This document shows positions 32,649-53,139 of a DNA stretch of 64,000 bases, one piece after another. The stretch is taken from positions 2,607 to 66,606 of the forward strand of contig JALTKX010000061.1 of assembly GCA_027006055.1 (NCBI GenBank), written 5' to 3'. Source of the DNA: Calditrichia bacterium. Lineage in GTDB: Bacteria; Calditrichota; Calditrichia; Calditrichales; J004. The translations under genes were made by a program, and so were the position numbers. The notes beneath the pieces are model-generated. The model saw only the letters and a list, made by a program, of their open reading frames with translations, ran no database searches and was not told where the DNA came from. The first letter of the stretch is position 1. The number at the start of each line of letters is the position of its first letter.

Positions 32649-32661
32649 AAAGAAGGTGATT

Positions 32662-33534
32662 ATGGAAAAGAAAATTAACTCCTTTTTGCAGGATATTAAA
32701 AATGTTGTGGACGCGGAAGTGGAAAAGGCTTTGCGTCATGACGTGACCCTGACCGACGGCCTGTACAAATCCGCGGAATATTCGGCCGGCGGCGGCAAGC
32801 GTGTACGGGCGGTGTTTACCATACTGGTGGGCAATCTGTTTGGCGTCGCTCCGGAAAAGCTGTATAAAACCGCCTCGGCCGTGGAGATGATCCATGCCGC
32901 TTCGCTGATTATGGATGACCTGCCCTATATGGATGACTCCCAGTTGCGTCGGGGCAAGCCGGCCAACCATGTGGTGTTTGGCCAGGATGTGGCCCTGTGC
33001 GCCAGTATCGCCCTGCTTTCCCAGGCGTTGATCATGGTGCAGGAAGATGACGCGCTGACCATTGAGCAACGCCATGGCGCCGCCGGCGTGCTTACCCGGG
33101 CCTTTGGTTTTGAGGGTCTGGCCGCGGGTCAGTTTGTCGATCTGAAATTGAAAACAAAAAATGTGGACTACTCCATAATCGAGTTTATCAATGCCAAAAA
33201 AACGGCGGCCCTGTTTACGGCGGCGGGCAAGGCGGCGGCCATGGTGGGCGGCGCCAATGAAGAGCAGATGAAGGCCATCGTCGCCTATTCCGAGAATATC
33301 GGTTTTGCCTTTCAAATTATCGATGATTTGCTGGATGCTTCCGGTAATAAAAATGTGGTGGGTAAGGATCTGGCCCATGACAAAATGAACTTTGTTATGC
33401 TGGTGGGTGAGGAACAGGCCTACAAGGATGCCGAAAAACATACCCGGATGGCCCTGGAAGCCCTGAATATTTTTGGCGATAAAAGCGCTGAGTTGAAAGC
33501 CTTAAGTGATTTTCTGTTAAAAAGGGTTCGTTGA
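32662..33534 (+). CDS. trans-Polyprenyl diphosphate synthase (GGPP-synthase type)
   Basis: First Asp-rich motif 'LIMDDLPYMDD' and second 'FQIIDDLLD'. Small residues precede the first motif. I preferred the ATG at 32662 over the GTG at 32656. Confidence 0.9.
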   Translation: MEKKINSFLQDIKNVVDAEVEKALRHDVTLTDGLYKSAEYSAGGGKRVRAVFTILVGNLFGVAPEKLYKTASAVEMIHAASLIMDDLPYMDDSQLRRGKPANHVVFGQDVALCASIALLSQALIMVQEDDALTIEQRHGAAGVLTRAFGFEGLAAGQFVDLKLKTKNVDYSIIEFINAKKTAALFTAAGKAAAMVGGANEEQMKAIVAYSENIGFAFQIIDDLLDASGNKNVVGKDLAHDKMNFVMLVGEEQAYKDAEKHTRMALEALNIFGDKSAELKALSDFLLKRVR

Positions 33535-33571: not shown

Positions 33572-34909
33572 TTGGTCGCGCCTCTTTGTGCGCAGCGCGT
33601 CCTTCCCCTGAAAGTGGATGATTTTAATTATGAGCGTTCCTGGTGGGTGTACCACCGTGACGGGACGGTGGCCGCCGATAAGGGCGCCATTGAAAACGGG
33701 CGGGGCTTCCTTAAAATCCGTCTAAAAAACCCGGTGAATAGCGAAGAATGCAATGTCGGCATTTCCGACGCCCAGCCGCTTTACTCCAAGCATCAGCGCT
33801 ATCTGGAAATGGAGGCGCGCATAAAGCTGTTAAGCCCCATGAAGGCGGGCAGCAGGGGCTGGGGATTTTGGAAGACGGCCCGTAACGGCAAGGCGGACTA
33901 TCTGGCCTGGTTTATGCAGCAGTTCCTTCCCGGACATAAAGACTTCAGTTGGAGCCGCGTGGGTACCATCTCCAAGCGGCAGGCCTCCTTTCAGCCCGTC
34001 TCCCTGCAGGAAAACCGCTGGCATACCTACCGGGTTGTCCGCGATCTGGATAGGAAAGAGACCCGCTATTTTGTGGATGACGAGCCGGTAACAACGCCCG
34101 CCCGTCTGGCGCCTTCCGGGAAAATGGCTTTTCATCTGTGGATCGACAATCAGGTATACAGCCGCAGCAGGGGCATACAACGGCAGGGCTGGCAGGGTGA
34201 AAGCGCCATGGTTGTGGATTATGTGACCATCCGTACCCGTCGTTTTATGCCGGATGACGGCAGCTATTTCCCGCATTATCGCCATATAACCTCTCCCCGG
34301 AGCCTGGCCTTTCCCGTGAGGAAAGGAAAAAACGCCCTGCTGCTCTCGGCCGTGCTGGAAGACCCTACCCCCCATGACGTTGCCGACCGTCTTGTCCTTG
34401 AAGCGTCACAGGTATCCCCGGTGTCTTTCGGCCCGTTAAAGGAGGTCAAAAGCGCTCAAACGGCGCCTCTTTCCCTGTTCGCGGAAAAAGATACAACCAT
34501 AACATTAAAAATTGTGCCCCGGGGCGCTCCCTTTTTGGAAAGCATCACTCTGATACCTTACGATACACTCCTTTACTCGGAACGGAATGTCGCCGCGCTT
34601 GAAAAGGAGAAAACTATAGATTTCCATAGCATGGGCGGCGAGGTAACCATTGTGCTTGTCGGCGTAACACGGGAAGCCCCGGGCTGGCATCCCTTTAATA
34701 AAAAGATGGGCACGGCGCGGGCGCAAAGGCTGGATATCAGCCTGGACAAGGGGCAGTACAGGGAAAGCGTGGACGGCATGGAGCAGTTCGGTCTGAGTAA
34801 GACCGTGGTGATGCGGGAACATCTGAAACCCGGCCGCCACACCCTAAGGCTTGTACCCGCAAATAAGCCGGATATCTCTTTTATTTGGATCAGCGAAAAA
34901 CAACCATGA
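33572..34909 (+). CDS. Hypothetical exported protein with a ConA/LamG-like N-terminal domain (paralog of the 35945-38155 N-terminus); start uncertain
   Basis: 445 aa from the TTG at 33572. The frame is open from 33521 and encodes a signal-peptide-like 'SSLFFWLLTGVLVAPLCAQ' upstream of that TTG. It shares 'DDFN.E..WW' and 'SRGWGFWK' with the downstream paralog. Confidence 0.5.
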   Translation: MVAPLCAQRVLPLKVDDFNYERSWWVYHRDGTVAADKGAIENGRGFLKIRLKNPVNSEECNVGISDAQPLYSKHQRYLEMEARIKLLSPMKAGSRGWGFWKTARNGKADYLAWFMQQFLPGHKDFSWSRVGTISKRQASFQPVSLQENRWHTYRVVRDLDRKETRYFVDDEPVTTPARLAPSGKMAFHLWIDNQVYSRSRGIQRQGWQGESAMVVDYVTIRTRRFMPDDGSYFPHYRHITSPRSLAFPVRKGKNALLLSAVLEDPTPHDVADRLVLEASQVSPVSFGPLKEVKSAQTAPLSLFAEKDTTITLKIVPRGAPFLESITLIPYDTLLYSERNVAALEKEKTIDFHSMGGEVTIVLVGVTREAPGWHPFNKKMGTARAQRLDISLDKGQYRESVDGMEQFGLSKTVVMREHLKPGRHTLRLVPANKPDISFIWISEKQP

Positions 34910-35952
34910 CAGGCTTTATCAAAAAATATTTCGGTTGGCGCGACTGGGCGGTGTTGGTTTACAATTCCATTTTTGAGAATGTCTTTATTCTCTTTTATGT
35001 CCTGCTCCGGGAACAGACCATGGGAACGGAGCAGCTTATTCAGACCCTGGTTTTTCTCCTGTTCAGCATGTTCTCCACAACTTACGGCTATCTGATTAAC
35101 GATTACGCCGATATGGAACTGGACAGGGCCCATGGCAAGGCGAACACCTTTTCCGCGGATGGCAAGGGCAAGGCCCTGGCGGTGACTCTGTTGTTTCTGT
35201 TTTTAAGCGTCATCAGCGGCTGGTATTTCAGCGATCATCAGGATTTTTTGCTTATCTGGTTTATCTGGATATTCATCGGCAGTTTCTATTCCCTGCCGCC
35301 GCTGCGTTTTAAGGAACGGGGCAAGCCCGGCCTGCTTTTGGTGGTGCTGGCCCAAAGATTGTTGCCCATTCTTCTTGTATTTACCGCCTTTGGCTTTGAA
35401 CGCACGGCTGAGATCGTTCTTCTGGCGGCCTATGTATTTTTTCGCGGGCTCTCTTCCGACGTCAACCATCAGGTGGAGGATTATGAAAATGATGTGAAAA
35501 CGGAAACGGGAACCTTTGCCGTAAGCACGGGGCTGGGTCTGGCGCAAAAAGTATTGCGCTTTTCACTGGAGATGGAAAAAATATTGCTGGCCGTAATTTT
35601 GGCCATGTTTTTATATGTTTTCGCCTGGTTCGATGTATTACCCCTGATGTTGCTGGTGGCGGCCGTACTGCTCTATTACGGCATCTGGTTCTATTCTATT
35701 TTTTTGTCGTTTAAAAGTCCTGGGTTGGATGTCAACCCCTTTAAAGGGCGGGGGGATGTGTTCCAATTGTTACACCATTCTTATCCCAGCGTTATCTTAA
35801 GCCTTGTATTCAGCCTGATTGTATCTTATTTTAATCTGGCGTTTCTGATAATATTTTTACTAATGGCGCTCATCCGCCGTCTGTTTTCGGTGGAACTGAT
35901 AAAAAGCACATTTATATATAGAACACTAAGTAAGGTGGTGCATCGTGAGTAG
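34906..35952 (+). CDS. UbiA-superfamily aromatic/lipid prenyltransferase
   Basis: The ATG at 34906 overlaps the upstream stop (ATGA). Motifs 'YLINDYADMELD' (NDxxDxxxD) and a second acidic motif 'VEDYENDVKTE'. About 8-9 TM helices. Confidence 0.85.
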   Translation: MTGFIKKYFGWRDWAVLVYNSIFENVFILFYVLLREQTMGTEQLIQTLVFLLFSMFSTTYGYLINDYADMELDRAHGKANTFSADGKGKALAVTLLFLFLSVISGWYFSDHQDFLLIWFIWIFIGSFYSLPPLRFKERGKPGLLLVVLAQRLLPILLVFTAFGFERTAEIVLLAAYVFFRGLSSDVNHQVEDYENDVKTETGTFAVSTGLGLAQKVLRFSLEMEKILLAVILAMFLYVFAWFDVLPLMLLVAAVLLYYGIWFYSIFLSFKSPGLDVNPFKGRGDVFQLLHHSYPSVILSLVFSLIVSYFNLAFLIIFLLMALIRRLFSVELIKSTFIYRTLSKVVHRE

Positions 35953-38155
35953 GTACAGGGAAGTATTTTTAACAGCCGTTTTCCTCATGGCTTCCAATCT
36001 CTTTGCCCAAACATATATTATTCCCGATCTGCAAAGGGATGATTTCAATATGGAAAAAACCTGGTGGATTTTTCAAAATCACGGCGGGCAACCCCTGCCT
36101 GTAACGAAGAATGGCTATCTGTATGCCTACCTGGAAAATGCCCGTAACGGGCAACCTGTGGTGCCGTTGGATAACACCCTTGCTGAAATGGAAAATGTCG
36201 GTATAATGACCGCGGATCAACGGCCGATTTACGGTAAGGATGATATTGTGGATGTGCGTATCCGGGTAAAAACATTGAATCCACTTACACCAGGTAGCAG
36301 GGGATGGGGATTTTGGAAGTCGGAGGGCGTCCCGGTTACTATAAACCAGGCGGTATGGTTTATGGAACAGCAACCCGATGCCAGCCACAGTTGGGCGGCC
36401 AGCGAGGATTGGTGGCGGGCCCGAACCCACCGAACGGTGGACCCCTCTTATGATTTCTCTACCGATCTGGATGGCAGTAACGGTTCTCCCCATAACATAG
36501 ATAATATGCAATGGCATTACTATCGTATTGTACGCAACGGTAGAAATAATTACGATCACTATGTTGACGGTGTTTTAATCCAAAGTATCACCCCCGCTGA
36601 TTTCCCCGACGGAAAAATCCTTAATGAGGATTATTCTTTTAACTGTTGGAATGATAACCTGGTTTATCACAGTACAACCAACGCGCTTTCCGGAAACGAC
36701 ACCATTGAGGTATATGCCAACGGTTGGATTGATACCACCGAATTTGTTGTGGATTTTATTGAAATCCGCAGCGGGAACTATAATCCCTCCAAATCCTATA
36801 CTCCCATCGGCGCCATCGCCCTGCGCGAGGTGGTTAACGAAATAGATAACGGCATCAGCGACGGTAATTTTAAAGGACCCTATTCTTTTAACGCGGTGGC
36901 CGGTAAAACGGTTATTCTGGCCACGGGTAAGGCCGAAGAGCTGGACAGTTACGACGTCGCCGATGAGATGAAGATGATTTTGAACAGTACGGACTTTGGC
37001 TATAACACCTCCCGCAGCTGGGACGGGCTGGTGGATGCCGGCACTCCCAAAACCATCGTGATCGACACCAATCTGACCACCGGCAGTCATACCCTGGAGT
37101 TTCAGTCCATATCCACGCCCATTTTATATGACGCCACCGTGCTCAGCAGCGCCAACGGCAGCATTGTGCTTAATCAGGATGTGAACAGCAGCGCCCCTTC
37201 CGGTAGCAACAACACCCTGTGGCAGTCTTTTAACTTTACCGCCGAGGCCGGGGACGTGATCATCTACATCAGCGGCAGTGCCGACGAGGAGCCGGGCTGG
37301 AATCATCAGAACGCCACTATTGACAGTACCGATGACGATGAACTGCGCCTGGAGCTGGACGGCTACGACTTCGGTTGGGGCTCGGACAGCGCCTCGTTCG
37401 TCGGTAATACATTATTTGGTGATTTTAAAACCATCTGTATCCGCCGTTCGGTTTCTTCCGGAAGCCATACCTTAAACCTGTATGCCAATGAAACACCCTA
37501 CGTAAATAAGGTGTTGATCTATGCCGCCAATGGCGATGTGGCCCTTCCTGTTCAGCTAACATCCTTTTCCGCGGAAAAAGGCGAGAAGGGTACCGTTGTA
37601 CGCTGGCAGGTTGCCTCGGAGATACAAAATGCCGGGTTTAATTTATACCGGGCCGTTGGCGCGCCCGGGGCCGAACCCGGGGAAGGGGATTATATTAAAA
37701 TCAATGATAAGCGCATTCCGGGCAGGGGCACCGCCTCAACCTCCCGGGAATACTCTTTTAAGGATGAATACAGGCCCGCGCCGGGAGAAGTTGTCTGGTA
37801 CAAATTGGAAGATGTCAGCTATGACGGCCGGGTTACCGTGCATGGTCCCATAAGTATTAAAAACACCCTTCTGCCCCAAAGGTTTGAACTGGAACAAAAT
37901 TATCCCAATCCGTTTAACCCTTCCACGTCGATACCTTTTTCGTTGAACAGGGAAGAGACGATTGTTGCTGAAATTTATGATGTGCGCGGCCGCCGCGTGC
38001 GGGTGCTGAGCCGGGAGCGTTATCCCGCGGGTTCGCATATTCTGATATGGAATGGCCTGGATGACCGGGGCGGCTATGTGCCCAGCGGTATCTATTATCT
38101 TAAGATGCAGGCCGGTGATCAAACCCGGGCCATGAAGCTGACCTTTTTGCGTTAA
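35945..38155 (+). CDS. Secreted ConA/LamG-like domain protein with a T9SS C-terminal sorting domain
   Basis: 736 aa. GTG start and signal peptide 'FLTAVFLMASNLFAQ'. C-terminus 'NYPNPFNPSTSIPFSL...IYDVRGRRV...SGIYYLKMQAGDQTRAMKLTFLR' is typical of Por_Secre_tail/FlgD-Ig-like CTDs. Confidence 0.75.
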   Translation: MSRYREVFLTAVFLMASNLFAQTYIIPDLQRDDFNMEKTWWIFQNHGGQPLPVTKNGYLYAYLENARNGQPVVPLDNTLAEMENVGIMTADQRPIYGKDDIVDVRIRVKTLNPLTPGSRGWGFWKSEGVPVTINQAVWFMEQQPDASHSWAASEDWWRARTHRTVDPSYDFSTDLDGSNGSPHNIDNMQWHYYRIVRNGRNNYDHYVDGVLIQSITPADFPDGKILNEDYSFNCWNDNLVYHSTTNALSGNDTIEVYANGWIDTTEFVVDFIEIRSGNYNPSKSYTPIGAIALREVVNEIDNGISDGNFKGPYSFNAVAGKTVILATGKAEELDSYDVADEMKMILNSTDFGYNTSRSWDGLVDAGTPKTIVIDTNLTTGSHTLEFQSISTPILYDATVLSSANGSIVLNQDVNSSAPSGSNNTLWQSFNFTAEAGDVIIYISGSADEEPGWNHQNATIDSTDDDELRLELDGYDFGWGSDSASFVGNTLFGDFKTICIRRSVSSGSHTLNLYANETPYVNKVLIYAANGDVALPVQLTSFSAEKGEKGTVVRWQVASEIQNAGFNLYRAVGAPGAEPGEGDYIKINDKRIPGRGTASTSREYSFKDEYRPAPGEVVWYKLEDVSYDGRVTVHGPISIKNTLLPQRFELEQNYPNPFNPSTSIPFSLNREETIVAEIYDVRGRRVRVLSRERYPAGSHILIWNGLDDRGGYVPSGIYYLKMQAGDQTRAMKLTFLR

Positions 38156-38167
38156 CCGGAATATTTT

Positions 38168-39103
38168 TTGAGCTGTATTTCCAACTTTCATTGGTATTAT
38201 TTCGATCTGCACAGCGCGGATGGCTATGATCTGATCTGTACCATCCATCCCGCGCCCTTTAATTCCGTCTTTGATATTGCGATTGTCGATATCTACCTCT
38301 ACAATGGCGCGGAAACCCTGGTGCATCATTTTTTTGTTATACCGCAAAAGGAGCTGCGTCGTTCGGAAGAACCCTTTGTTCTCTCTTTTGATAAAGATAA
38401 TTTTATCAGGAAGTCGGACGGCCATATTTTAGTGCGGATCAGGGACGGCGAAACGTGCCGGCTTATGCTGGAGCTTAACGATCCGCACCCGCAACAACCG
38501 GTGAGGAGCGATATTCTTCCCGGAGGCAGGGAGGGGGAGTCCTTTGAGTGGGTCGTTCATACGCCCTATGCTCCCGCCGTCGCCGAGCTTACATTCTCCG
38601 GCAAAACCCATATCCTGAATGGTTTGGGCTATCATGATTACAACGGCGGCTCAATCAACCTGAAACAAAGTCTGCGCTACTGGTTTTGGGGGAAGTATTA
38701 TCTGGAAGACAGCCTGATCGTTTACGGCTATATTCAGGATCGTTATAATAATGCCAAAAAACTTTTGTTGCGGGCAGATAAAGAGGGGATGGCCATCGAT
38801 CGCCGGGCGGAAGTTGAGGCGGATAAACACCGTTTGCGTTACAAAGGCCCCCTGGGCGAATATGATTTTAGCGTGGAACCCGCACAGCTTTTGGACCGGG
38901 TGGATTTTTTTATGCCGGCGGTGAAAGCGCCTTTGCTTCTTGTCAAACTCCTGGAAATCGCCGCTCATTTTAGCGGCCGTCTTAAGGTTCTTAAGCCCCT
39001 TAACCGGTTTCTTACCAACTCCGTTTATGAACGTTTCCGTTCCCGGGGCACGGATCAGAAGGGCCGGGCTCTCTCCTGCTTTTATGAAGAAATGCACTTT
39101 TAA
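38168..39103 (+). CDS. Hypothetical protein, candidate CrtC-like (hydroxyneurosporene-synthase family) isoprenoid hydratase
   Basis: 311 aa with a TTG start 12 nt after the upstream stop. 'WYYFDLHSADGYDLICTI...F' and 'GLGYHDYNGG...YWFWGKY' resemble the CrtC/AttH lipocalin-like family patterns as I recall them. Confidence 0.4.
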   Translation: MSCISNFHWYYFDLHSADGYDLICTIHPAPFNSVFDIAIVDIYLYNGAETLVHHFFVIPQKELRRSEEPFVLSFDKDNFIRKSDGHILVRIRDGETCRLMLELNDPHPQQPVRSDILPGGREGESFEWVVHTPYAPAVAELTFSGKTHILNGLGYHDYNGGSINLKQSLRYWFWGKYYLEDSLIVYGYIQDRYNNAKKLLLRADKEGMAIDRRAEVEADKHRLRYKGPLGEYDFSVEPAQLLDRVDFFMPAVKAPLLLVKLLEIAAHFSGRLKVLKPLNRFLTNSVYERFRSRGTDQKGRALSCFYEEMHF

Positions 39104-39109
39104 GGTTTT

Positions 39110-41617
39110 ATGTCCCTGACCATTTTTCATCTCTCCGATTCGGTTCCCCTGACGAAAGTCGGCGCGAAAGCGTATAATCTGAACCGGCTGCATCGCTTTG
39201 GTTTTAACGTTCCCGAAGCCTGGTTTTTACCGGTGGAGGCCATGGAGTTTTTCCTTCGGGAAAATAATATATTACCCCTGCTTTATGCCCTCAGGCAGGA
39301 AGGGAAGGTTTCCCGAGGCAATGCACTGGAAGCGGCCCGGGCCCTGCGGGCGGAAATACTGAAAGCTCCATTGCCCCACGAGCTTTTGGAGTTAATTAAA
39401 GAGCGTGTTTTAAAGGAACCGCGCGGACGTTTTTCCGTGCGTTCCTCCTCCATAAATGAAGACCTGGAGCAGAATTCCTATGCCGGTCAGTATGCTTCGG
39501 TTTTGGATGTGGCGCCTGTTGTGGCCGATCTGGAAAGGGGCATTCGCCGGGTGTGGGCTTCCCAGTGGAGCGAGCCGCTGATTAACTACGCCTTTAAAAA
39601 CAGTTATCCTATCCCGGACCCGGGCATGGGGGTGGTTATTCAGAGAATGGTCGAGCCGGAGATTGCCGGCGTGTTGTTTTCCTACAACCCCTTTACCTTC
39701 AATAAAAACGAAATGGTTCTGGAATATGTGAAGGGTCTGGGCGAGGGACTGGTAAGCGGCGAGAAGACGCCGGAACATTTGATATACAGCCGCGCAACCT
39801 CTGCTTTCAAACAGGCCGGCGATATTCCCAAAAATTATATAAAACCTTTTGACATGCTGATTCAGGGCGCCGGGACGCTGGAAAAGAAAACCGGTCTGGC
39901 CGTGGATATCGAATGGGCCTATGACGGGGAAGCCCTGTATTATCTGCAAATGCGCGCCATAACCACCATGGGCCAGAACCATATCCTGTGGACGGATGAA
40001 AATGTGGGCGAGGTTATACCCGATATCGTTACCCCCTATTCCTGGAGCATTCTTAATCCGATCACCAACGGCGCCTTTAAAAAATTTTTACACGAACTGG
40101 GCACGGATGACTATCCCGAGCATGGACTGTTTGGTCTTTATAAGGGAAAAGTCTATCTCAATCACACCGCGTTTAATGAAACCATGTCCCGTTTTTACCT
40201 ATCCGGCTACAAGCCCGCGGCCGACAGTGCGCTGGCGCTGCCGGTTCAGTGGCTCAGGCTGTTGCTGTTCCCTTTACGCATAGGCCGGGCCCTGTGGCGT
40301 GTCTGGCGCTTGTCTCAAAACATGGAAGGGCGCATGAAACGGCATATCGCTGCCCATGGGGAGCGCCTCAAGGCGATCTCCTTTGAAAAAAAGGAAGACG
40401 CCCCTACCGCCTATAAAAGAGTCGACCGCCTGGTGGAGCTGCATCATGAAACCATGCACCTGCATGTAACCAATACCATACTGGCGGAGTTTTATTTTCA
40501 ACTGTTGAAAAAGATAATCGACGGTTGGGGCCGCGCCGTGCCCGGGGCCGGGGCGGAGGCGGTGCTGGCCGGACTGGGTGAAGCGGAAAGCGCCCGCAGC
40601 GGGAGAGCCCTGTGGAAGATATCCCAAAAAATTAAAAACTATCCCCGGCTGCGAGCCTTGTTTGATACGGAAGATTTGGCGGAATTGGAAAAACAGCTGC
40701 TCGAAGCGGATAAGGAAAAAGTGATCATCCGGGAAATTCGCGCCTTTTTAAGGGAATTCGGCCATGGGGCCTTGCATGAGTTTGAACTGCTTTATCCGCG
40801 CTGGCAGGAGGACCGTTCCTACATCTATGCCAATATTCAAAACTATCTGAACAGTGAGATCGAGGATTTACCGGCACACGATCACAAGCTGGCCGGGATG
40901 CGCTCCGATATGCTCAGGCAGCTCCGGAAAAATATGAATATATTTAAACGACCGGTTTTTAACTATATATACAGCAGGGCGGCCCTGTTTAGCAGTCAGC
41001 GTGAGAATCTGAAGCAATGCCTGCTTAAAGCCCATTTTGAGCTTAAAAAGCATCTGTTGCATATTGGAAGCGTACTTGTGGAAAAAAAGGTTTTAGAGCG
41101 GCCGGGCGATATCCTTTTTTTACAGCACGATGAAATTAAACCTTATCTGGCGGAAAAACTTCCGGTAAAAAAAGTAAACACCCTGATCGCGGAGCGCCGT
41201 AAAAAACGGGCCTCGGATATTAATCAGGAGCATCCGCCCAGGATGATGCAGATTGGAGAATTGTGGCGTCCGCTTATTGAAGAAAGCGGAGACGGCGATG
41301 CCCTGCAGGGCATCGGCTGCAGCGCGGGTGTTGTGGAAGGCCGGGCGCGTATCATCGTAAATGAGCAAAGTTTTAACCGCTTGCAGAAAGGCGATATTCT
41401 GGTGGCCGCTTCCACCAATCCCGGATGGACGCCGCTTTTTATGACGGCGGCGGGCGTGGTAACGGAGATTGGGGGCGCTTTGTCTCATGGCGCCATTATT
41501 GCCCGGGAATACGGCATCCCCATGGTTACGGCGGTAAAAAAAGCAACAAAACTGATCGCGGACGGCGACCGCATCCGTGTTAACGGCTCCAACGGACAGG
41601 TGGAAATTTTAAGCTGA
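39110..41617 (+). CDS. PEP-utilizing phosphotransferase with rifampin-phosphotransferase-like architecture (PPDK_N ATP-grasp, helical middle domain, C-terminal phospho-His swivel domain)
   Basis: 835 aa. 'VRSSSINEDLEQNSYAGQY' (PPDK_N), 'DIEWAYDGEALYYLQMRAIT', and C-terminal 'GGALSHGAIIAREYGIPMV'. Confidence 0.85.
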   Translation: MSLTIFHLSDSVPLTKVGAKAYNLNRLHRFGFNVPEAWFLPVEAMEFFLRENNILPLLYALRQEGKVSRGNALEAARALRAEILKAPLPHELLELIKERVLKEPRGRFSVRSSSINEDLEQNSYAGQYASVLDVAPVVADLERGIRRVWASQWSEPLINYAFKNSYPIPDPGMGVVIQRMVEPEIAGVLFSYNPFTFNKNEMVLEYVKGLGEGLVSGEKTPEHLIYSRATSAFKQAGDIPKNYIKPFDMLIQGAGTLEKKTGLAVDIEWAYDGEALYYLQMRAITTMGQNHILWTDENVGEVIPDIVTPYSWSILNPITNGAFKKFLHELGTDDYPEHGLFGLYKGKVYLNHTAFNETMSRFYLSGYKPAADSALALPVQWLRLLLFPLRIGRALWRVWRLSQNMEGRMKRHIAAHGERLKAISFEKKEDAPTAYKRVDRLVELHHETMHLHVTNTILAEFYFQLLKKIIDGWGRAVPGAGAEAVLAGLGEAESARSGRALWKISQKIKNYPRLRALFDTEDLAELEKQLLEADKEKVIIREIRAFLREFGHGALHEFELLYPRWQEDRSYIYANIQNYLNSEIEDLPAHDHKLAGMRSDMLRQLRKNMNIFKRPVFNYIYSRAALFSSQRENLKQCLLKAHFELKKHLLHIGSVLVEKKVLERPGDILFLQHDEIKPYLAEKLPVKKVNTLIAERRKKRASDINQEHPPRMMQIGELWRPLIEESGDGDALQGIGCSAGVVEGRARIIVNEQSFNRLQKGDILVAASTNPGWTPLFMTAAGVVTEIGGALSHGAIIAREYGIPMVTAVKKATKLIADGDRIRVNGSNGQVEILS

Positions 41618-41678
41618 TTTGAACCGCCGTGCTGTGTATATTTAGGGCTTGTCTTAAGAAAAACGAAAAGCTTTGCCG

Positions 41679-42986
41679 ATGAAAAAAGTATTGTTGTTGC
41701 CCAGTGATCATGGCGGCGGGCGCGGCCATGTCAGCCGTATGCTTTATCTTGCGGAAAAACTGCGCCGTCATGGCTATTTGCCGGGTCTGGTTCTGGAAAA
41801 AAAACACTTTCAATCCGGCCTGGGGGATATGTATGAGCGCTTTCTGCTGGATACCCGTTTTGAACGTCTGGTAAAATATCAGGCACGGCGCCCCTTTAAG
41901 CCGGGGGTTCATTTAAAAACCCGTCTGCGCGAACGTCCTGTTTATACCGCCTTTAACAGCCTGGCCTATCAGATTCCGCGGGACGGTTACTGGACAACCC
42001 GTCTGGTACGTTACCGCTTAAAAAAACTAAGCCGGATTGTGGAGAGCTTTAAGCCGCAAATACTCATCGGCGATACGCACATGCTGACGGCGCTTTTGGG
42101 CAGGATGCACGACCTGCCCGTGGTGCAGGTTACCCGTTTACAGGGATATGCTCCCGCTCCGGAGTTTAACTGGTGGGGCGACAACGAGTCCGCCTATCAG
42201 GCGCCGGATGGTTTAAAGCCCTTTGAGCCTTTGTTGCGGGAGTGGGGCATGGAGGCCGGCCGCGTGGAAGATTTGTTGCGGGGCGCGCGCTACCTGATCC
42301 CGGCCTCGGCCGATGTGGAGCCCCTGTCCGTCAGCCGGCCCGATACGTTTTATTGCGGCCCTTTCAACGTTTCCGACAGGGGGGAACAGGCCATTCCCTT
42401 TTTTGATGAGCCGTCCGATAGTCCCAAAATTTATGTTTCCATCGGTGGCGGGGCGGGGCGTGCCCGGGAAAAACAGTTTTTTGAGTCGTTGATCCGCGTG
42501 TTCGATAAAAGCGAATACCGGGTGCTGGTATCCACGGGAAACCGCCTAAAGGCGCAAAATTTTAACGGACGCTCGGCGAATATGCTGTTTACCAACTGGA
42601 TACATGGAGCCAGCGCCATCGCCAAAAGCGACGCCATTGTGTTTCATGGCGGATACGGGACCATGATGGAGACGCTGACCCTGCGGCGGCCCGCGTTGGT
42701 TTTACCGTCCCACAGCGAGCAATGGGCCAATGGCAAGCGTTTGGAAAGCCTGGCGGTAGGAAGGGTGCTGCCCCTGTGGCAGCGCATGGAAACCCTGGAA
42801 CTGGAGTGGCCCTTCGGTCGCTTTACCCAGGGCGCCGGCCTGGGGTTACAGCTTGACAGAGAGTCCGTTTTGCAGGCCCTGCACGATTTGATTTTTAGCG
42901 ACGCCTATGAACGGCTGGAACGGATCGCCAAACCGCTAAGGGAAAAACAACAGGCGTTTGATCCCCGGCAACTCCTCGATTTTTAA
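41679..42986 (+). CDS. GT-B glycosyltransferase (GT1/MGT/MurG-like, UDP-sugar dependent)
   Basis: ATG at 41679. N-terminus 'DHGGGRGHVSRMLYLAEKLRRHG'. C-terminus 'FHGGYGTMMETLTLRRPALVLPSHSEQWANG'. Confidence 0.75.
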   Translation: MKKVLLLPSDHGGGRGHVSRMLYLAEKLRRHGYLPGLVLEKKHFQSGLGDMYERFLLDTRFERLVKYQARRPFKPGVHLKTRLRERPVYTAFNSLAYQIPRDGYWTTRLVRYRLKKLSRIVESFKPQILIGDTHMLTALLGRMHDLPVVQVTRLQGYAPAPEFNWWGDNESAYQAPDGLKPFEPLLREWGMEAGRVEDLLRGARYLIPASADVEPLSVSRPDTFYCGPFNVSDRGEQAIPFFDEPSDSPKIYVSIGGGAGRAREKQFFESLIRVFDKSEYRVLVSTGNRLKAQNFNGRSANMLFTNWIHGASAIAKSDAIVFHGGYGTMMETLTLRRPALVLPSHSEQWANGKRLESLAVGRVLPLWQRMETLELEWPFGRFTQGAGLGLQLDRESVLQALHDLIFSDAYERLERIAKPLREKQQAFDPRQLLDF

Positions 42987-42999
42987 GAAGACTCTTGTT

Positions 43000-43704
43000 A
43001 TGCATGGAATTTTAGAATTCATTAAAGACCAGCATTATAATATTCAAAGCATGTTGGGAAAAAGCACGCTGTATTATCATCTCTTTGCCCGGAAATTTCC
43101 CTTCAGCCAGATGGCGGTTACAGGCGATACGGAGATTGTCATCGAAGGATTTCCGCGATCGGCGAACTCATATGCCGTTGTGGCCTTTAAGCTGGTCAAT
43201 CCGCGGGCGCCCATCGGTCACCATCTGCATGTGCCGGTTCAACTGATACAGGCCTGTCGTTATAACATACCGGCGGTTTTGGTGCTGCGTGCCCCGGAGG
43301 AGGCGGTGGCCTCGTTCATGGTTTTTCAGGGAAGCCTGAATGCCGATATCTATCTTAAGGCCTATATCCGTTTTCATCGCCTGCTTTTACCCTATCGGGA
43401 AAAGATAATCGTGGCCTCCTTTGAAACGGTAACGTCGGATATGAACCGGGTGATAGAGGCGATAAACAGCCGGTATGACAAGGATTTTTCGTTGATTGAT
43501 TCTCTTCCGGAGCGGGAGGATGAAATCTTTGCAAAATTAAAAGATGTGAATGCCCGCTTTTTTGGCAATGCCTCGAACAAAAGCATGTACCCGGATCGCG
43601 GCCGGGAAAAAATGAAACAACTGGCCCAAAAAAAAGTTTTGCAATCCCCCTGGTTGGTGGAAGCGCGAAACCTCTACTCTCAACTTAACAGGAATGCCCT
43701 ATGA
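43000..43704 (+). CDS. Sulfotransferase-like protein (tentative)
   Basis: I chose the ATG at 43000. 'GFPRSANSY' sits where the 5'-PSB loop would be and 'VLRAPEEAVAS' where the 3'-PB motif would be. Confidence 0.4.
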   Translation: MHGILEFIKDQHYNIQSMLGKSTLYYHLFARKFPFSQMAVTGDTEIVIEGFPRSANSYAVVAFKLVNPRAPIGHHLHVPVQLIQACRYNIPAVLVLRAPEEAVASFMVFQGSLNADIYLKAYIRFHRLLLPYREKIIVASFETVTSDMNRVIEAINSRYDKDFSLIDSLPEREDEIFAKLKDVNARFFGNASNKSMYPDRGREKMKQLAQKKVLQSPWLVEARNLYSQLNRNAL

Positions 43705-44366
43705 GTTCGGAACATGAAGCACGGATAGATAAAAGCCACTATTTTGACGCCCGCTATCTTAAGCGCGAGCGCATGTACTCCTTTGTGGAGCAGATAGAGC
43801 TGATTAAGCAATGCGCAGCCAGGGATGACAGCCTTTTGGAAATAGGCAAGGGCAATGGTTTTGTTGCCGATTTCTGCACGCGTTATTTAGGTTATCAGGT
43901 GCAAACGGTAGATGTAAATGTGGATCTGCAACCCGACATCGTGGATGACATTACCGCTCCCCGGAAGCTAAAGGAGAAGAGCGCCGATGTGGTGGTGTGT
44001 TATGAAGTGCTGGAGCACATGCCCTTTGAAAAATCCATTCGCGCCGTTGAACATATGGCGCGCATTGCCCGTAAGTATGTGCTGATTTCCGTGCCCGATA
44101 TGCGATACTTTATCAGCGGCCGCTTTACGGTGTTTGGTTCGGGCCCCATCTTTTTACAAAAACTGATTTCCACCCGGCGCTTTCGCAAGGCCCGTAAAAA
44201 ATTCGGCGACGATCATCATTGGGAGATCGGTCTTAAAACGGACACGGTAACCTATAGCGCCGACTATGTGCGCCGCACTCTTTTCCAAAATGTCCGTCTC
44301 TTGCGCGACTACCGGGATATCGCCGTGCCCTGGCATCATTATTTTGTAGTTAAAACAGGTACTTAG
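43701..44366 (+). CDS. Class-I SAM-dependent methyltransferase
   Basis: 221 aa. Motif I 'LLEIGKGNGF' and motif II 'VVVCYEVLEHMP'. ATGA overlap with the upstream gene. Ends at TAG 44364-44366. Confidence 0.75.
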   Translation: MSSEHEARIDKSHYFDARYLKRERMYSFVEQIELIKQCAARDDSLLEIGKGNGFVADFCTRYLGYQVQTVDVNVDLQPDIVDDITAPRKLKEKSADVVVCYEVLEHMPFEKSIRAVEHMARIARKYVLISVPDMRYFISGRFTVFGSGPIFLQKLISTRRFRKARKKFGDDHHWEIGLKTDTVTYSADYVRRTLFQNVRLLRDYRDIAVPWHHYFVVKTGT

Positions 44367-44435
44367 ATCATCGAAAACGATACCTCCTCCTCTTCGAGTG
44401 AAATAACCCGCCGATCCGCCCATGGAATCAAATGG

Positions 44436-45851
44436 GTGGGTATGGCCGAGATGGCCATCCGTATTTTGCAGTATGGCACCACGCTTATTCTGGCCCGCCT
44501 TATGGTCGCCCAGGATTTTGGCGTGTGGGCCGTGTTGCTGTTGTTTACGCAACTGGCCTATGTTTTATTTGACTTTGGTTTCAGCTCGGCCCTGATTCAG
44601 CATAAACAGGTGAGCGCCCGGCATTATAATACCACCTTTGTTATCTATCTTTCCTCGGCCCTGGTTTATATAGTGCTTGTCTGGCTTTTGGCCGGTCCCA
44701 TGGCCGGTTTTTTTAAGCATCCGGAGATAAAACCCGCGCTGCGCCTGTTGACGGTCATTTTTATCTTTTATGCCTTTAATGCCATACCGCGTATCCGGCT
44801 ACAGCGGGAGATGCGTTTTAAACGCTTCAGCCTTATTCAGATCTGCGGCGTTTTTACCAACAGCGCCGTTACCTTAACGGCCGCTTTTCAGGGGTTCGGT
44901 TTTTGGAGCTTTGTTTACGGGGTTATAGCCGAACAGGTGGTACTGACCCTGTTTTTTAACATCTTCGGCTGGACCTCCGTGCGCCTGGCTTTTGACCGAA
45001 AAGCCTTTAGGGAACTGTGGGAATATGGCGTTAACGTATTGGCCACGCGGATTGTCGGATATTTGAATAATAACATCCCGGGCTTTCTGATCGGTAAGCT
45101 TATCGGTCTGGACGCCCTCGGTTATTACAACATAGCCTATCAGTTGGTTGAGTTTCCCGTTCAGCGCATATCTAAAAATGTGTTGCGCGTGATGTTCCCG
45201 GCGTTTTCAAAACTGCAGGATCGGTTGAGCGACTACCGTCAGCTCTACCGGCAGGTCGTTTTTTATCTGGGCGCGGTTTTAACGCCCATGTTTGTCGGCC
45301 TGGCCATGGTGGCTCCTTTTTTAGTGCCGGTACTTTACGGCCCGAAATGGACGCCCGTGGTTATGCCCCTGCAATTTTTGGCCCTGGCCGGTTTCTCCAG
45401 GTCGGTATGGACAACCATAAGCGTTGTGTTCCTTTCCATGGGTCAGCCCGATAAGGAGTTGAAGATAAATGTCAGCCTGGCGGTATTTTTAATACCGGCG
45501 GTCTATTTTACGGCGCCCCTGGGGTTAAACGCGGTTGTTCTGGTTGTATCCCTGTTGTTGTTAACCTTTGTCATCATCGGGCAGTTTAAAGCCTTTAGTC
45601 TCATTGGGGCAAGCTGGCCCGGCGTCGTCCGCAAGTTCCTGCCCTCCCTCTCGGGCTCGTTTCTTTTTCTGATTGTTTATGAACTGGCGCTGTATCTGGG
45701 CCTGGGTCGTCTGCATTCTGTTTGGGTGCTTTTACTGACCATTCCGGGCAGTGCGTTAATATATATTGTTTTTATGTTCCGTTATGATCCGCAATTGCTC
45801 AGCCGTTTACGATCCATTTTAAAAGGGGGAAGCGATGCCAAAAACAATTAA
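44436..45851 (+). CDS. MOP-superfamily polysaccharide/lipid-linked-glycan flippase (Wzx), copy 2; start uncertain
   Basis: 471 aa from the GTG at 44436. Polytopic. Conserved Wzx N-terminal homology extends upstream of this GTG (see finding). 'ILARLMVAQDFG' parallels 'VLARILFPEDFG' of copy 1. Confidence 0.8.
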   Translation: MGMAEMAIRILQYGTTLILARLMVAQDFGVWAVLLLFTQLAYVLFDFGFSSALIQHKQVSARHYNTTFVIYLSSALVYIVLVWLLAGPMAGFFKHPEIKPALRLLTVIFIFYAFNAIPRIRLQREMRFKRFSLIQICGVFTNSAVTLTAAFQGFGFWSFVYGVIAEQVVLTLFFNIFGWTSVRLAFDRKAFRELWEYGVNVLATRIVGYLNNNIPGFLIGKLIGLDALGYYNIAYQLVEFPVQRISKNVLRVMFPAFSKLQDRLSDYRQLYRQVVFYLGAVLTPMFVGLAMVAPFLVPVLYGPKWTPVVMPLQFLALAGFSRSVWTTISVVFLSMGQPDKELKINVSLAVFLIPAVYFTAPLGLNAVVLVVSLLLLTFVIIGQFKAFSLIGASWPGVVRKFLPSLSGSFLFLIVYELALYLGLGRLHSVWVLLLTIPGSALIYIVFMFRYDPQLLSRLRSILKGGSDAKNN

Positions 45852-47064
45852 AGTGGATGTGGCCGTTATCGGCGCCGGGCCCGCCGGTTCCGTTGCCGCC
45901 ATCAGTTGCCGGAAAAAAGGCTTAAGCGTTGCCCTGGTGGACAAGGCCGTATTTCCCCGGGATAAGGTTTGCGGCGACGGGATACCGTTAAAGACCTTTA
46001 AACTGTTAGAAGAACTGGGCTTCAGTGAAGAGGAGTTGTTCAAAAACGGTTATAAGATTAATCGGCTTAAGCTTTATGGCCCCGAGGGTCATCTGACGGA
46101 ATTCGGCAGCCTTCAGGCCGATGCCAGCACAAAAAGCGGTTGTATTCCAAGGTCGGAATTTGACTATGCCATTTTCACGCGGGCGGAACAAGAAAGCAAC
46201 CATGTTTTGACGGGCTATAAATTGGTTGCCATACGCAATGGTGATTCACGGCAGTTGCTGGAAGTGAAAAACCTCCGGGACAATCAAAGCCTGCAAATCG
46301 ATGCGGGATTGGTGATTGCCGCCGATGGGGCCAATTCCTACACGGCCCGGCTGTTAAATTTGCTTAAACGTGATCAGGCGCATCACTTTGACGGTTTAAG
46401 ATGGTATTTTAAGGGTAAAAAATTTGACTCTTCGGTTCATCTTTTTTATGATAGCCGAACCCTGCCTGGATATGTATGGGTTTTTCCCGTGGCCCCGGAC
46501 AGAGCCAATGTGGGGATTATGATCGATAAGAAGCAGAAAAGGAATACGGGCAAGAATATCCGCGATCTGTTTCTTGAAGTTATAGAGCACAATCCCTCTT
46601 TAAAAAAAGTGCTTGACGGCGCTCATCCCGAGAATGAAATAAAGGGGGCTCCCCTGCCTTTGGGCACCTTACCCGGTTCGCGGATAAGCGACGGAACCAT
46701 ACTGGTGGGAGACGCGGCGGCTTTTATAAACCCCGTCACCGGCGGCGGTATTTATTTTGCCATTTTAAGCGCCATGAAGGCGGCGGAAGTGGCCGCCCGT
46801 TTAAAAGAGAATAATTTGCCTCCGAGCAGGAAGAATCTGGACGTATACGAACAATGGTGGCAGCGAACGATTTTACCCGGCTTCTTTTATTCGGATTGGT
46901 TAAAAAATAAATTTGATTCGGAAAACTTCAGCGGACGTTTTTTCCGCTGGAGCAGCCGCTTTAAACCGGTGGCTAATTTTTTTATAATGGTCTATGGAAG
47001 ACCGCTGCCAAAGGGTGTGTTTAAAAATCCGCTCTTTTGGTTACGCGTTATATTAATGCGATAA
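45835..47064 (+). CDS. Geranylgeranyl-reductase-family FAD-dependent oxidoreductase, paralog 1
   Basis: 409 aa. 'VAVIGAGPAGSVAA', 'KVCGDGIP' and 'GDAAAFINPVTGGGIYFA'. Overlaps the flippase end by 17 nt. Confidence 0.8.
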   Translation: MPKTIKVDVAVIGAGPAGSVAAISCRKKGLSVALVDKAVFPRDKVCGDGIPLKTFKLLEELGFSEEELFKNGYKINRLKLYGPEGHLTEFGSLQADASTKSGCIPRSEFDYAIFTRAEQESNHVLTGYKLVAIRNGDSRQLLEVKNLRDNQSLQIDAGLVIAADGANSYTARLLNLLKRDQAHHFDGLRWYFKGKKFDSSVHLFYDSRTLPGYVWVFPVAPDRANVGIMIDKKQKRNTGKNIRDLFLEVIEHNPSLKKVLDGAHPENEIKGAPLPLGTLPGSRISDGTILVGDAAAFINPVTGGGIYFAILSAMKAAEVAARLKENNLPPSRKNLDVYEQWWQRTILPGFFYSDWLKNKFDSENFSGRFFRWSSRFKPVANFFIMVYGRPLPKGVFKNPLFWLRVILMR

Positions 47065-47079
47065 ATTGGTATAGGAAAT

Positions 47080-49374: not shown

Positions 49375-49400
49375 ACATTTTATGACAATATCCATTTCAG

Positions 49401-49434
49401 ACCACTTCCTTTTTTAAGGAAGTGGTTTTTTTTT
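49401..49434 (+). terminator. Rho-independent terminator
   Basis: Perfect 9-bp stem accacttcc/ggaagtggt with an 8-nt loop, followed by a T-run through 49434. It begins 27 nt after the stop at 49374. Confidence 0.8.
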
Positions 49435-49469
49435 CGATAATGCAAGGGATATGAATATAAAAGGATTTT

Positions 49470-50663
49470 ATGGAACAATTTGATGTAGTGATCCTTGGGG
49501 CGGGGCCGGCCGGCAGTGTTCTGGCCCGTTTACTGGCCGAAAAGGCCTTTAAGGTATTGTTGGTGGAAAAAGATGCCTTTGCCGGTAAAACAACGGCCTG
49601 TGGCGGTCTTTTCGATAAGCCCTATTTTGACCGCTATGTGGATGATCCCACAGTGATGGAACAGCATATACGCAGGAATGTGTTTAAAATGCCCTGGGGC
49701 GAGGTGGTATACGATTGTGACCAGGTTACCGTAAAACGGCGTGTTTTTGATCGCTATCTGGCGGAAAAGGCGCGCAATGCCGGCGCGGTTTATCGCACCC
49801 GCACAAAAGCCCTGGACTGGAAACGCATCCGCTCCGGGCAGGTGGAAATCCATTTACACGACCTTGATAAAAAGGAAAAGTATCTTGTCGGGGCCAGAGT
49901 GGTGGCCTTTGCCGACGGGCCGCATACCCTGGCCAAAAAAAATCCGCGCTTTGAGCACGCCCAAAATCGAAAAAACTGGGCCTATGCCTATGCCTACGAG
50001 GTCGACGGCCTGGTTACCGCCCCGGATGAGATGGTCATCTATCTGGACAAGGCGTTATTTCCCTGGGGCTATGGCTGGATTTTCCCCGACAGTGATGTGT
50101 CCAATATCGGAGTGGGCACCATCCAGTCCGAGATGGATAAGGGAATTAAGGTTAAGGAAAAACTGTTTGAGTTTATAAATGAATATCCGGCAACATCCGC
50201 CCTGCTGAAAGGGAGAACGATCAGTGACAAAAAAGGCGGGTTTATCCCCATGTGGCTGATTGATTTTTATTCGGATGACTCCCAACTGGTGTTGGGAGAC
50301 GCCGCCGGCATGGTGAGTCCGCTTTTTGGCGCGGGAATTGATTATGCCATCGACGCCGCGGAAGCGGCCGCCGCCACCCTGGGGGAGGCCCTGACCGCCG
50401 GACGCTACGACGCGGCCACGTTAAAGGCCTACGACGAAAGGCTTAACAAGGGCTTTTTGATTGACCTGCGTAAGCAAATGATGGTGGCGCGCATTATCAT
50501 TAAAAGTTTGAAATTCGGCGCGCAGTGGCCCGTGAAAATTTTGGCCGCGATTGCCTTTGGCGGCAAATATACCCGCTGGAATAAAATAAAAATCATGCTT
50601 TATCCTCTTCTGGGACAGCCGCGAACACTTAAGGAAAACGGCGAAATACTATCACATAAATAG
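49470..50663 (+). CDS. Geranylgeranyl-reductase-family FAD-dependent oxidoreductase, paralog 2
   Basis: 397 aa. 'VVILGAGPAGSVLA', 'TTACGGLF' and 'GDAAGMVSPLFGAGIDYA'. Confidence 0.8.
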   Translation: MEQFDVVILGAGPAGSVLARLLAEKAFKVLLVEKDAFAGKTTACGGLFDKPYFDRYVDDPTVMEQHIRRNVFKMPWGEVVYDCDQVTVKRRVFDRYLAEKARNAGAVYRTRTKALDWKRIRSGQVEIHLHDLDKKEKYLVGARVVAFADGPHTLAKKNPRFEHAQNRKNWAYAYAYEVDGLVTAPDEMVIYLDKALFPWGYGWIFPDSDVSNIGVGTIQSEMDKGIKVKEKLFEFINEYPATSALLKGRTISDKKGGFIPMWLIDFYSDDSQLVLGDAAGMVSPLFGAGIDYAIDAAEAAAATLGEALTAGRYDAATLKAYDERLNKGFLIDLRKQMMVARIIIKSLKFGAQWPVKILAAIAFGGKYTRWNKIKIMLYPLLGQPRTLKENGEILSHK

Positions 50664-50674
50664 CCGGGGAACGA

Positions 50675-51769: not shown

Positions 51770-51902
51770 ATTACAGACCGTTTCTGTTTGTACAATTATT
51801 TTACAACAGAAATAATGCACAGGGGGGGATGCTCCCCGGGAATAAGGATATTTCCGCTTGGCACCATTGTTGCTTTTTAAGGCGGAAAAATATGGAAGTG
51901 TT

Positions 51903-53135: not shown

Positions 53136-53139
53136 AATC

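Follow-up and report, generated by a model that had tools for sequence, protein, structure and literature searches.

A conserved Calditrichota gene pair encoding a divergent CrtC/AttH-fold protein and a rifampin phosphotransferase-type enzyme within a predicted isoprenoid-lipid cluster

The stretch of DNA analysed here (the window) comprises 64,000 nt of a Calditrichia bacterium (Calditrichota; Calditrichales; J004; assembly GCA_027006055.1, contig JALTKX010000061.1, positions 2,607-66,606, forward strand). Its central part contains two neighboring open reading frames (ORFs), one encoding a 311-aa protein related to the carotenoid 1,2-hydratase CrtC and the other an 835-aa protein related to rifampin phosphotransferase (RPH) (Table 1). 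A model-generated reading of the DNA letters, hereafter the sequence-only reading, had proposed that the first enzyme hydrates an isoprenoid double bond and the second phosphorylates a hydroxyl group of the product. The two ORFs, their sizes and the 6-nt gap between them were confirmed in the window sequence. Promoter and terminator scans detected nothing between the two genes, and the earliest strong plus-strand terminator was found only at 49399-49428, indicating that both genes sit in a long, tightly packed plus-strand array. Based on sequence comparisons and structural models, the products of this gene pair probably modify a prenyl lipid by a route that has not yet been described.

The 835-aa protein matched the Pfam families PPDK_N (residues 16-233, E = 3e-46) and PEP-utilizers (residues 759-829, E = 3e-24) and no others, and both matches had been anticipated by the sequence-only reading. 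The phospho-histidine motif noticed in that reading, SHGAIIAREYGIP, is present at residues 792-804. The order of domains, with an ATP-grasp domain followed by a helical substrate domain and a C-terminal swivel domain carrying the catalytic histidine, is the same as in the Listeria enzyme RPH-Lm (5FBS/5HV1) and in PigC and RedH. Listeria RPH was also the closest solved relative over the full length (phmmer, E = 2e-65; Foldseek, E = 1.4e-43 over ~900 columns), with an identity of ~22%. True phosphoenolpyruvate (PEP) synthase and PPDK aligned to the AlphaFold2 model solely via the ATP-grasp and swivel parts in the Foldseek comparison.

A mutational study of RPH-Lm identified as critical residues K22, R117, and T136 in the ATP-grasp domain, R666, E667, and K670 in the second active site, and H825 as the phosphate carrier (PMC4844700). 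All of them have counterparts in the 835-aa protein. In addition to the ATP-grasp residues listed in Table 1, the alignment placed the phosphotransfer triad at R631-E632...K635 (nt 41000-41014), and H793 was matched with H825 at residue level. In 38 orthologues, K20, R111, R631, E632, K635, and H793 were invariant, and position 130 was always Ser or Thr. Since the residues critical to both RPH half-reactions are conserved, the 835-aa enzyme is predicted to have the same stoichiometry, converting ATP to AMP, inorganic phosphate (Pi) and a phosphorylated substrate via phospho-His793. We conclude from the sequence and the model that this protein is a complete RPH-type phosphotransferase and predict that it is functional.

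The substrate-binding domain of the 835-aa protein opens with the invariant motif W294-TDENVGEVIPD-x-VTP, and residues 377-704 are almost purely helical in the AlphaFold2 model (predicted local distance difference test score, pLDDT, 86.8), as expected for the middle region. The family PF27448, which concerns this domain, is annotated in precomputed records on all relatives of the protein. Residues ~290-495 gave no sequence alignment with residues 327-520 of RPH-Lm, the rifampin-binding region. Because the first half of the substrate domain thus bears no relation to that of RPH, we conclude from this comparison that the substrate of the 835-aa enzyme differs from rifampin.

Database sources label proteins of the 835-aa type as 'phosphoenolpyruvate synthase', and the NCBIfam models matched by the protein were PRK06241 'PEP synthase', PigC, RedH, and Rph, with scores three- to four-fold under the curated cut-offs. 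The Rph model NF041857 (RIF_Ptrans_rph) gave E = 2e-85 and 287.6 bits against a cut-off of 999, and the PEP_synth model TIGR01418 gave 209.6 bits against a cut-off of 739.75. The labels and the low E value for RIF_Ptrans_rph would be compatible with a rifamycin-resistance phosphotransferase or a PEP synthase that lies in this neighborhood by coincidence. We find this hardly credible and reject it, given the scores below cut-off, the unrelated counterpart of the rifampin-binding region, and the operon position, which is invariant in 33 genomes (see below). Furthermore, neither Pfam nor the AlphaFold2 model revealed a PEP/pyruvate TIM barrel (PF02896, PEP-utilizers_C) in the protein. It stops just past the swivel domain and is helical from residue 377 to 704, leaving no TIM barrel, cryptic or otherwise. 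Nor is the protein orthologous to Rph, PigC, or PpsA. Pfam, NCBIfam, the alignment and Foldseek thus agree with the sequence-only reading that the protein has the three-domain layout of RPH and not that of PEP synthase. While Rph is a stand-alone resistance gene, the 835-aa protein is encoded in a lipid-biosynthesis operon.

The Pfam search of the 311-aa protein returned no match at all, and CrtC (PF07143) was unlisted even at E ≤ 10. Its sole library match was the NCBIfam CrtC model NF045922 (E = 1e-6), which scored 28.4 bits against a cut-off of 400 and covered residues 130-213 only. A plain sequence search of the PDB gave chance matches only, and a word-indexed search of 5.8 billion proteins gave just 10 relatives. 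A profile search against 1.84 billion representatives recovered 47 close members of the 311-aa family, followed by a long tail of ~350-aa proteins at E values of 1e-10 to 1e-26, and most of the tail proteins tested matched Pfam CrtC, often together with DA_N, AsqO_C, or Svf1_C. When aligned by hhalign with a wider 'GYHDHNWG' family whose members match Pfam CrtC, the 311-aa family gave a probability of 100% and E = 7e-46 over 293 columns. The sequence-only reading had called this protein CrtC/AttH-like on the basis of the motifs FHWYYFD (residues 7-13), GYHDYNGG (residues 154-161), and WFWGK (residues 172-176), all of which are present. As regards the superfamily, this assignment was upheld by the profile-profile comparison and by the fold described below, but it failed at the level of the Pfam CrtC family and reached only 28 of 400 bits with NF045922.

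The AlphaFold2 model of the 311-aa protein (pLDDT 95.3) shows the two-barrel AttH fold. Its Z scores were 24 with fungal decalin Diels-Alderases (~270 aligned residues), 19.8 with AttH (2ICH) and 18.7 with kievitone hydratase (7A0T) (~250 residues each), and 17.8 with 25-phosphosteroid lyase (~260 residues), whose structures 9fzn, 9g2i, and 9g4c were among the top fold matches (Foldseek, E = 3e-9). The Diels-Alderases (Fsa2, Phm7, CghA) superpose best, but they share only 6-11% identity with the 311-aa protein and belong to a fungal polyketide-nonribosomal peptide synthetase context, and no polyene or dienophile pathway lies beside the 311-aa gene. CrtC and kievitone hydratase were the only relatives of known activity that could be detected by sequence.

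Residues W9, Y11, D13, D41, F126, W128, Y155, D157, N159, W172, W174, Y287, R289, and E307 are invariant in the 311-aa family, which retains four Trp, three Tyr, and one Asp in the pattern reported to be fully conserved among CrtCs. Like CrtC and kievitone hydratase (PF07143; 7A0T), the protein has an N-terminal W-Y-x-D strand motif and the series (F/H)-x-W ... Y-x-D ... W-x-W. The essential residues of CrtC are H239, W241, Y266, and D268 in R. gelatinosus numbering (PMC4717167), and the invariant W128, Y155, and D157 of the 311-aa protein are spaced like the last three of these. Apart from the lack of a Pfam match and an apparent His-to-Phe change considered below, the protein differs from CrtC and kievitone hydratase in its N terminus, which is ~40-100 residues shorter and lacks the N-terminal extension of CrtCs, in an extra helical hairpin, in the absence of a carotenoid or isoflavonoid context, and in its obligate pairing with a kinase. 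The hairpin (residues ~256-282) is amphipathic, is inserted in the second barrel and is specific to the 311-aa family; it is missing in most relatives of the wider family, where the E263 column is gapped in 65 of 88 sequences. It could be a membrane-docking or lid element. Database labels for these proteins include 'hypothetical', 'carotenoid 1,2-hydratase', and 'AttH domain-containing'. As judged from the profiles and the predicted fold, the 311-aa protein falls within the CrtC/AttH superfamily as a divergent member and belongs to a Calditrichota-specific subfamily.

In a sample of 86 Calditrichota genomes, the 311-aa family proper was found in 35, and the same 35 genomes carry an orthologue of the kinase (E < 1e-100). 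A 36th match to the 311-aa protein was weak (genome G073, E = 1.5e-7), probably represents a relative from the wider family, and was excluded. In 33 of the 35 genomes, the kinase gene immediately follows the 311-aa gene on the same strand, with kinase identities down to 32%, and in the other two the pair is split by contig ends. Adjacency in just one genome would be much weaker evidence; pairing as strict as this shows that the two genes work together. A search for related loci with alignment A1 returned Calditrichota records only. One distant Calditrichota genome contains a second, partial CrtC-like copy (G079:C16:15332-15880, locus L024) ~3 kb upstream of the main pair, between genes for a UbiA-family prenyltransferase and a paralogue with features of the type IX secretion system (T9SS).

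Among 80 metagenome loci, the kinase adjoins a CrtC-like gene of the wider family in three. The gene order on contig L116 (147-4109) is polyprenyl synthase, UbiA, CrtC-like protein, and PPDK_N kinase, and that on L043 (1-5503) is kinase, flavoprotein, CrtC-like protein, family 1 glycosyltransferase (GT1), and FG-GAP protein. Contig L042 has the order CrtC-like protein, GT1, and FG-GAP protein and begins inside the CrtC-like gene, so that any upstream kinase is out of view. These contigs and L041 come from other lineages, and their CrtC-like proteins are of a more canonical 'GYHDHNWG' type. The core module has thus turned up repeatedly in lineages independent of one another, where it includes CrtC-like proteins closer to the canonical form. 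Other members of the wider family adjoin TetR, CrtI-like, Caroten_synth, or thiolase/ChsH2-like genes, neighbors that fit hydratase-type roles in carotenoid, steroid, or isoprenoid metabolism.

The pair is embedded in a larger cluster (Table 1), the whole of which is kept in 13 loci from ten other genomes according to tblastn searches with the window proteins. The cluster starts with GT2 and GT-C genes, an FPP/GGPP-type polyprenyl synthase, and two secreted paralogues flanking a divergent UbiA prenyltransferase. It continues with the 311-aa gene, the kinase, a GT1 of the MGT/CrtX type, a 248-aa protein without known function, a methyltransferase, and a MOP flippase, and it ends with a geranylgeranyl reductase (GGR), an FG-GAP protein with a T9SS tail, a second reductase, a radical SAM/SPASM protein, a PorV/PorQ-family protein, and a Big_9 T9SS protein. 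Together with the adjacency in 33 of 35 genomes and with contig L116, the 13 conserved loci support the view that the genes are a functional pair within an isoprenoid-lipid cluster. The UbiA-family enzyme is likely to be the maker of the prenyl lipid on which the pair acts, and the GT1 is probably a third member of the core module. A search of the ESM Atlas with the UbiA protein found generic UbiA clusters only, and a literature search found nothing on this cluster.

Table 1 Features of the gene pair and the surrounding cluster in the window
Feature	Position (nt)	Strand	Remarks
311-aa ORF; CrtC/AttH-fold protein	38168-39103	+	TTG start; stop codon at 39101-39103
835-aa ORF; RPH-type ATP-dependent phosphotransferase (predicted)	39110-41617	+	ATG start
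ATP-grasp (PPDK_N) domain of the 835-aa protein, residues 1-~290	39110-39979	+	K20, R111, S130 are counterparts of RPH-Lm K22, R117, T136
Substrate-binding domain of the 835-aa protein, residues ~291-725	39980-41284	+	alpha/beta start, then long helices
C-terminal swivel phospho-histidine domain (PEP-utilizers) of the 835-aa protein	41297-41617	+	catalytic His793 codon at 41486-41488
Short-chain (FPP/GGPP-type) polyprenyl diphosphate synthase	32656-33534	+	
Divergent UbiA-family prenyltransferase	34885-35952	+	directly upstream of the CrtC-like gene in L116
Secreted paralogue pair flanking UbiA	33572-34909 and 35945-38155		1-3 copies in relatives between UbiA and the CrtC-like gene; N-terminal regions without Pfam family
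GT1 (MGT/CrtX-type) glycosyltransferase	41673-42986	+	always directly downstream of the kinase in Calditrichota; adjoins the CrtC-like gene in L042 and L043
Remaining cluster: 248-aa protein, SAM methyltransferase, MOP flippase, GGR 1, FG-GAP/T9SS-tail protein, GGR 2, radical SAM/SPASM	42958-51769	+	

The cluster gives some indication of the substrate. Library scans of the window proteins detected no phytoene synthase or desaturase in the cluster. No CrtI-family gene above cut-off was found in the bacterium's own genome (86% complete), whose single SQS_PSY gene lies among riboflavin genes, and no CrtI was found at E ≤ 1e-20 in the pair-carrying genomes G006 (100% complete) and G050 (99%). A carotenoid substrate for the pair is therefore unlikely. 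The idea that the 311-aa protein works as a genuine carotenoid 1,2-hydratase in a carotenoid glycoside pathway, with the GT1 acting like CrtX, could draw on the automatic UniRef name of a protein 91% identical to it ('Carotenoid 1,2-hydratase'), on NCBIfam CrtC as the only library match, and on the CrtI-like and Caroten_synth genes beside some members of the wider family. Given the missing carotenoid-pathway genes and the score of 28 against 400 bits, we regard this as very improbable and reject it.

Five of five near-complete Calditrichota relatives carry a PcrB/GGGPS-family gene (including G030:C1:2131943-2132617 and G034:C4:389422-390090), and in two of these genomes 45-55 kb separate it from the pair; the gene was not found in the 86% complete genome of the window. 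Its presence hints at a capacity for archaeal-type ether lipids, and one possible scaffold for the pair, as a conjecture, is thus an ether lipid of this type in whose synthesis the UbiA enzyme takes part.

The explanation that we favor, tentatively and with somewhat less than even confidence, is that the pair, together with the GT1, acts on a prenyl lipid that the polyprenyl synthase and the UbiA enzyme of the cluster provide and tailors one of its isoprene units, with hydration preceding phosphorylation. While the analysis itself establishes the gene pairing, the predicted folds, the isoprenoid setting, and the conservation of catalytic residues, the substrate, the sequence of steps, the hydroxyl that receives the phosphate, and the end product are proposals, as follows. 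In the first step, the cytoplasmic 311-aa protein would protonate a double bond of the prenyl chain, most plausibly that of the omega-terminal dimethylallyl end, via Asp157 in the barrel lined by Trp and Tyr residues, and the addition of water would yield a tertiary alcohol. In the second step, the ATP-grasp domain of the 835-aa protein would place the beta-phosphate of ATP on His793, releasing AMP and Pi. The swivel domain would then move to the helical substrate domain, where R631, E632, and K635 would help to transfer the phosphate onto a hydroxyl group borne by the same lipid. Finally, the GT1, the methyltransferase, the GGRs, and the flippase would complete the molecule and export it to the envelope.

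Hydration as the first step is favored because every relative of known function that sequence searches detect is a hydratase; both CrtC and kievitone hydratase convert a terminal prenyl double bond to a tertiary alcohol without a cofactor. It is also favored because the kinase and the GT1 require a hydroxyl acceptor and no gene for an oxygenase is present in the cluster, and because the compact clusters in metagenomes use ordinary CrtC-like proteins. The addition of water is the only evident route to a hydroxyl on the prenyl chain in this cluster.

Several observations weigh against this explanation. Besides the poor performance of the 311-aa protein with the Pfam and NCBIfam CrtC models, the position of the essential His239 of CrtC appears to be occupied by the invariant Phe126 in the 311-aa family, a tentative mapping that relies on the spacing and on the HxW-bearing relative with the top score against the CrtC model, not on an alignment with a proven CrtC. 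With the Pfam CrtC match failing and this His apparently replaced by Phe, the protein is at most a candidate hydratase, as the sequence-only reading had called it. As far as the model goes, the AttH fold would not fix the chemistry either, since it is common equally to a phosphate-eliminating lyase and to pericyclases. Tertiary phosphate esters are labile and high in energy (PMC8449060), so that such an ester would be an odd end product. The phosphorylated hydroxyl could instead sit on the acceptor of the UbiA reaction or on a sugar, not on the hydrated isoprene. In addition, the literature search found no report of an isoprenoid lipid of this kind from Caldithrix.

To our knowledge, all characterized AttH-fold enzymes that act on isoprenoids work via a tertiary carbocation at the terminal isoprene unit. 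Because the hydratases add water to such a cation and 25-phosphosteroid lyase (25-PSL) generates one by expelling phosphate, two orders of action are open for the pair. In the reverse order, which we rate as less probable but as a competitor to be taken seriously, the 835-aa enzyme would phosphorylate a (tertiary) hydroxyl of the prenyl lipid, and the 311-aa protein would ionize the product and eliminate phosphate, leaving an alkene or an internally trapped carbocation. The pair would then be an ATP-driven dehydratase or cyclase, similar to the 25-hydroxysteroid kinase (25-HSK) and 25-PSL of Sterolibacterium denitrificans (9FZN/9G4C), with a non-homologous kinase. In PigC and RedH, which belong to the same kinase family as the 835-aa protein, phosphorylation activates the substrate rather than decorating it, and the strict adjacency of the two genes would suit two successive reactions linked by a labile intermediate. 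That the CrtC His seems to be lost also hints at a change in chemistry, and 25-PSL is one of the top fold matches of the 311-aa model.

The Sterolibacterium system, a precedent absent from the sequence-only reading, resembles the Calditrichota pair in combining a kinase and an AttH-fold enzyme at a terminal isoprenoid carbon through a tertiary alcohol and its phosphate. There, 25-PSL expels phosphate from the tertiary phosphoester that 25-HSK forms at the end of the steroid side chain, on its last isoprenoid unit, giving a tertiary carbocation (PMC8449060, PMC11061730). The transfer potential of the tertiary phosphoester is close to that of ATP (Keq 0.34), and the reverse reaction of 25-HSK makes ATP from ADP (PMC8449060). 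A kinase forming AMP and Pi would, by inference, make the formation of such an ester irreversible. However, 25-HSK is a 40-kDa, ADP-forming enzyme annotated as a phosphotransferase and not of the RPH type, the Sterolibacterium kinase and lyase genes are not adjacent, and the system is catabolic, serving anaerobic sterol side-chain oxidation. The lyase resembles the 311-aa protein in fold only: no sequence link to 25-PSL was found with profile A2 (E ≤ 10) or A4 (E ≤ 1), although AttH and kievitone hydratase were matched. Moreover, the source of the alcohol in an oxygenase-free biosynthetic cluster would itself need a hydratase.

A more specific form of this idea, which we think improbable, is that the pair is an ATP-driven carbocation generator. 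The RPH-type kinase would produce a tertiary prenyl phosphate, and its ionization by the AttH-fold enzyme would either create a new C-O or C-C linkage (as in a ring, ether, or cross-link) or introduce a double bond in an isoprenoid glycolipid. The glycolipid would then be flipped outward as an envelope anchor for the T9SS cargo of the cluster. If this were true, the pair would mirror in biosynthesis what the 25-HSK/25-PSL system does in catabolism and would point to a new class of lipids in the FCB group.

There is likewise only a slim chance, in our estimation, that the 311-aa protein is a non-catalytic, lipocalin-like binder that lifts a membrane lipid to the soluble kinase, which would phosphorylate the acceptor hydroxyl of the UbiA product (on a phenol, glycerol, or sugar). 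The superfamily includes Svf1-type lipocalin domains, with a Pfam Svf1_C match in one relative, and both the 311-aa and the 835-aa protein are soluble (maximum 19-residue hydropathy 1.3 and 1.6, respectively) yet their substrate would be a membrane lipid. The family-specific amphipathic hairpin also speaks for this view. Other kinases with PPDK-type domains, namely flavonoid phosphate synthetase, phenylphosphate synthase, and HpeHI, act on phenolic hydroxyls, and HpeI was among the fold matches of the 835-aa model. However, D13, D41, Y155, D157, N159, R289, E307, and the four Trp residues are invariant in the family and in its Pfam-CrtC relatives, which resembles an active site and not a passive pocket.

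The known roles of RPH/PigC-type phosphotransferases lie in antibiotic resistance, pigment condensation, and phenol activation, and we know of none in membrane-lipid biosynthesis. CrtC/AttH-fold enzymes have been described as stand-alone hydratases, as pericyclases, and very recently in one case as a phosphate lyase. The parts of the Calditrichota system thus come from known superfamilies; the novelty is that they are obligately paired, that an RPH-type kinase occurs in a lipid-biosynthetic setting, and that the CrtC-fold protein represents a divergent subfamily. Obligate pairing throughout the phylum, in an isoprenoid-glycolipid export cluster with T9SS components, suggests a lipid that has yet to be described, and with it equally undescribed enzymology by which anaerobes act on an unactivated isoprene unit. 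Since Caldithrix abyssi is in culture, the lipid can be sought directly. The enzymes may also be of interest to biocatalysis for the selective hydration or phosphorylation of terpenes.

Other genes of the window deserve brief mention. The PorV/PorQ-family outer-membrane protein (51858-53135), a conserved part of the cluster, matched NF033709 with 153 bits against a cut-off of 90. Three proteins with a T9SS C-terminal domain are also conserved in the cluster (35945-38155, 47080-49374, and 53122-55983), and the cluster lipid might serve as an anchor for such T9SS cargo. An 836-aa ORF at 23035-25545, in the upstream polysaccharide part of the array, had no Pfam match. On the minus strand, a 994-aa protein (58241-61225) contains PPDK_N without a swivel domain; it is a weak paralogue of the 835-aa kinase (E = 1e-5) and is unrelated to the cluster.

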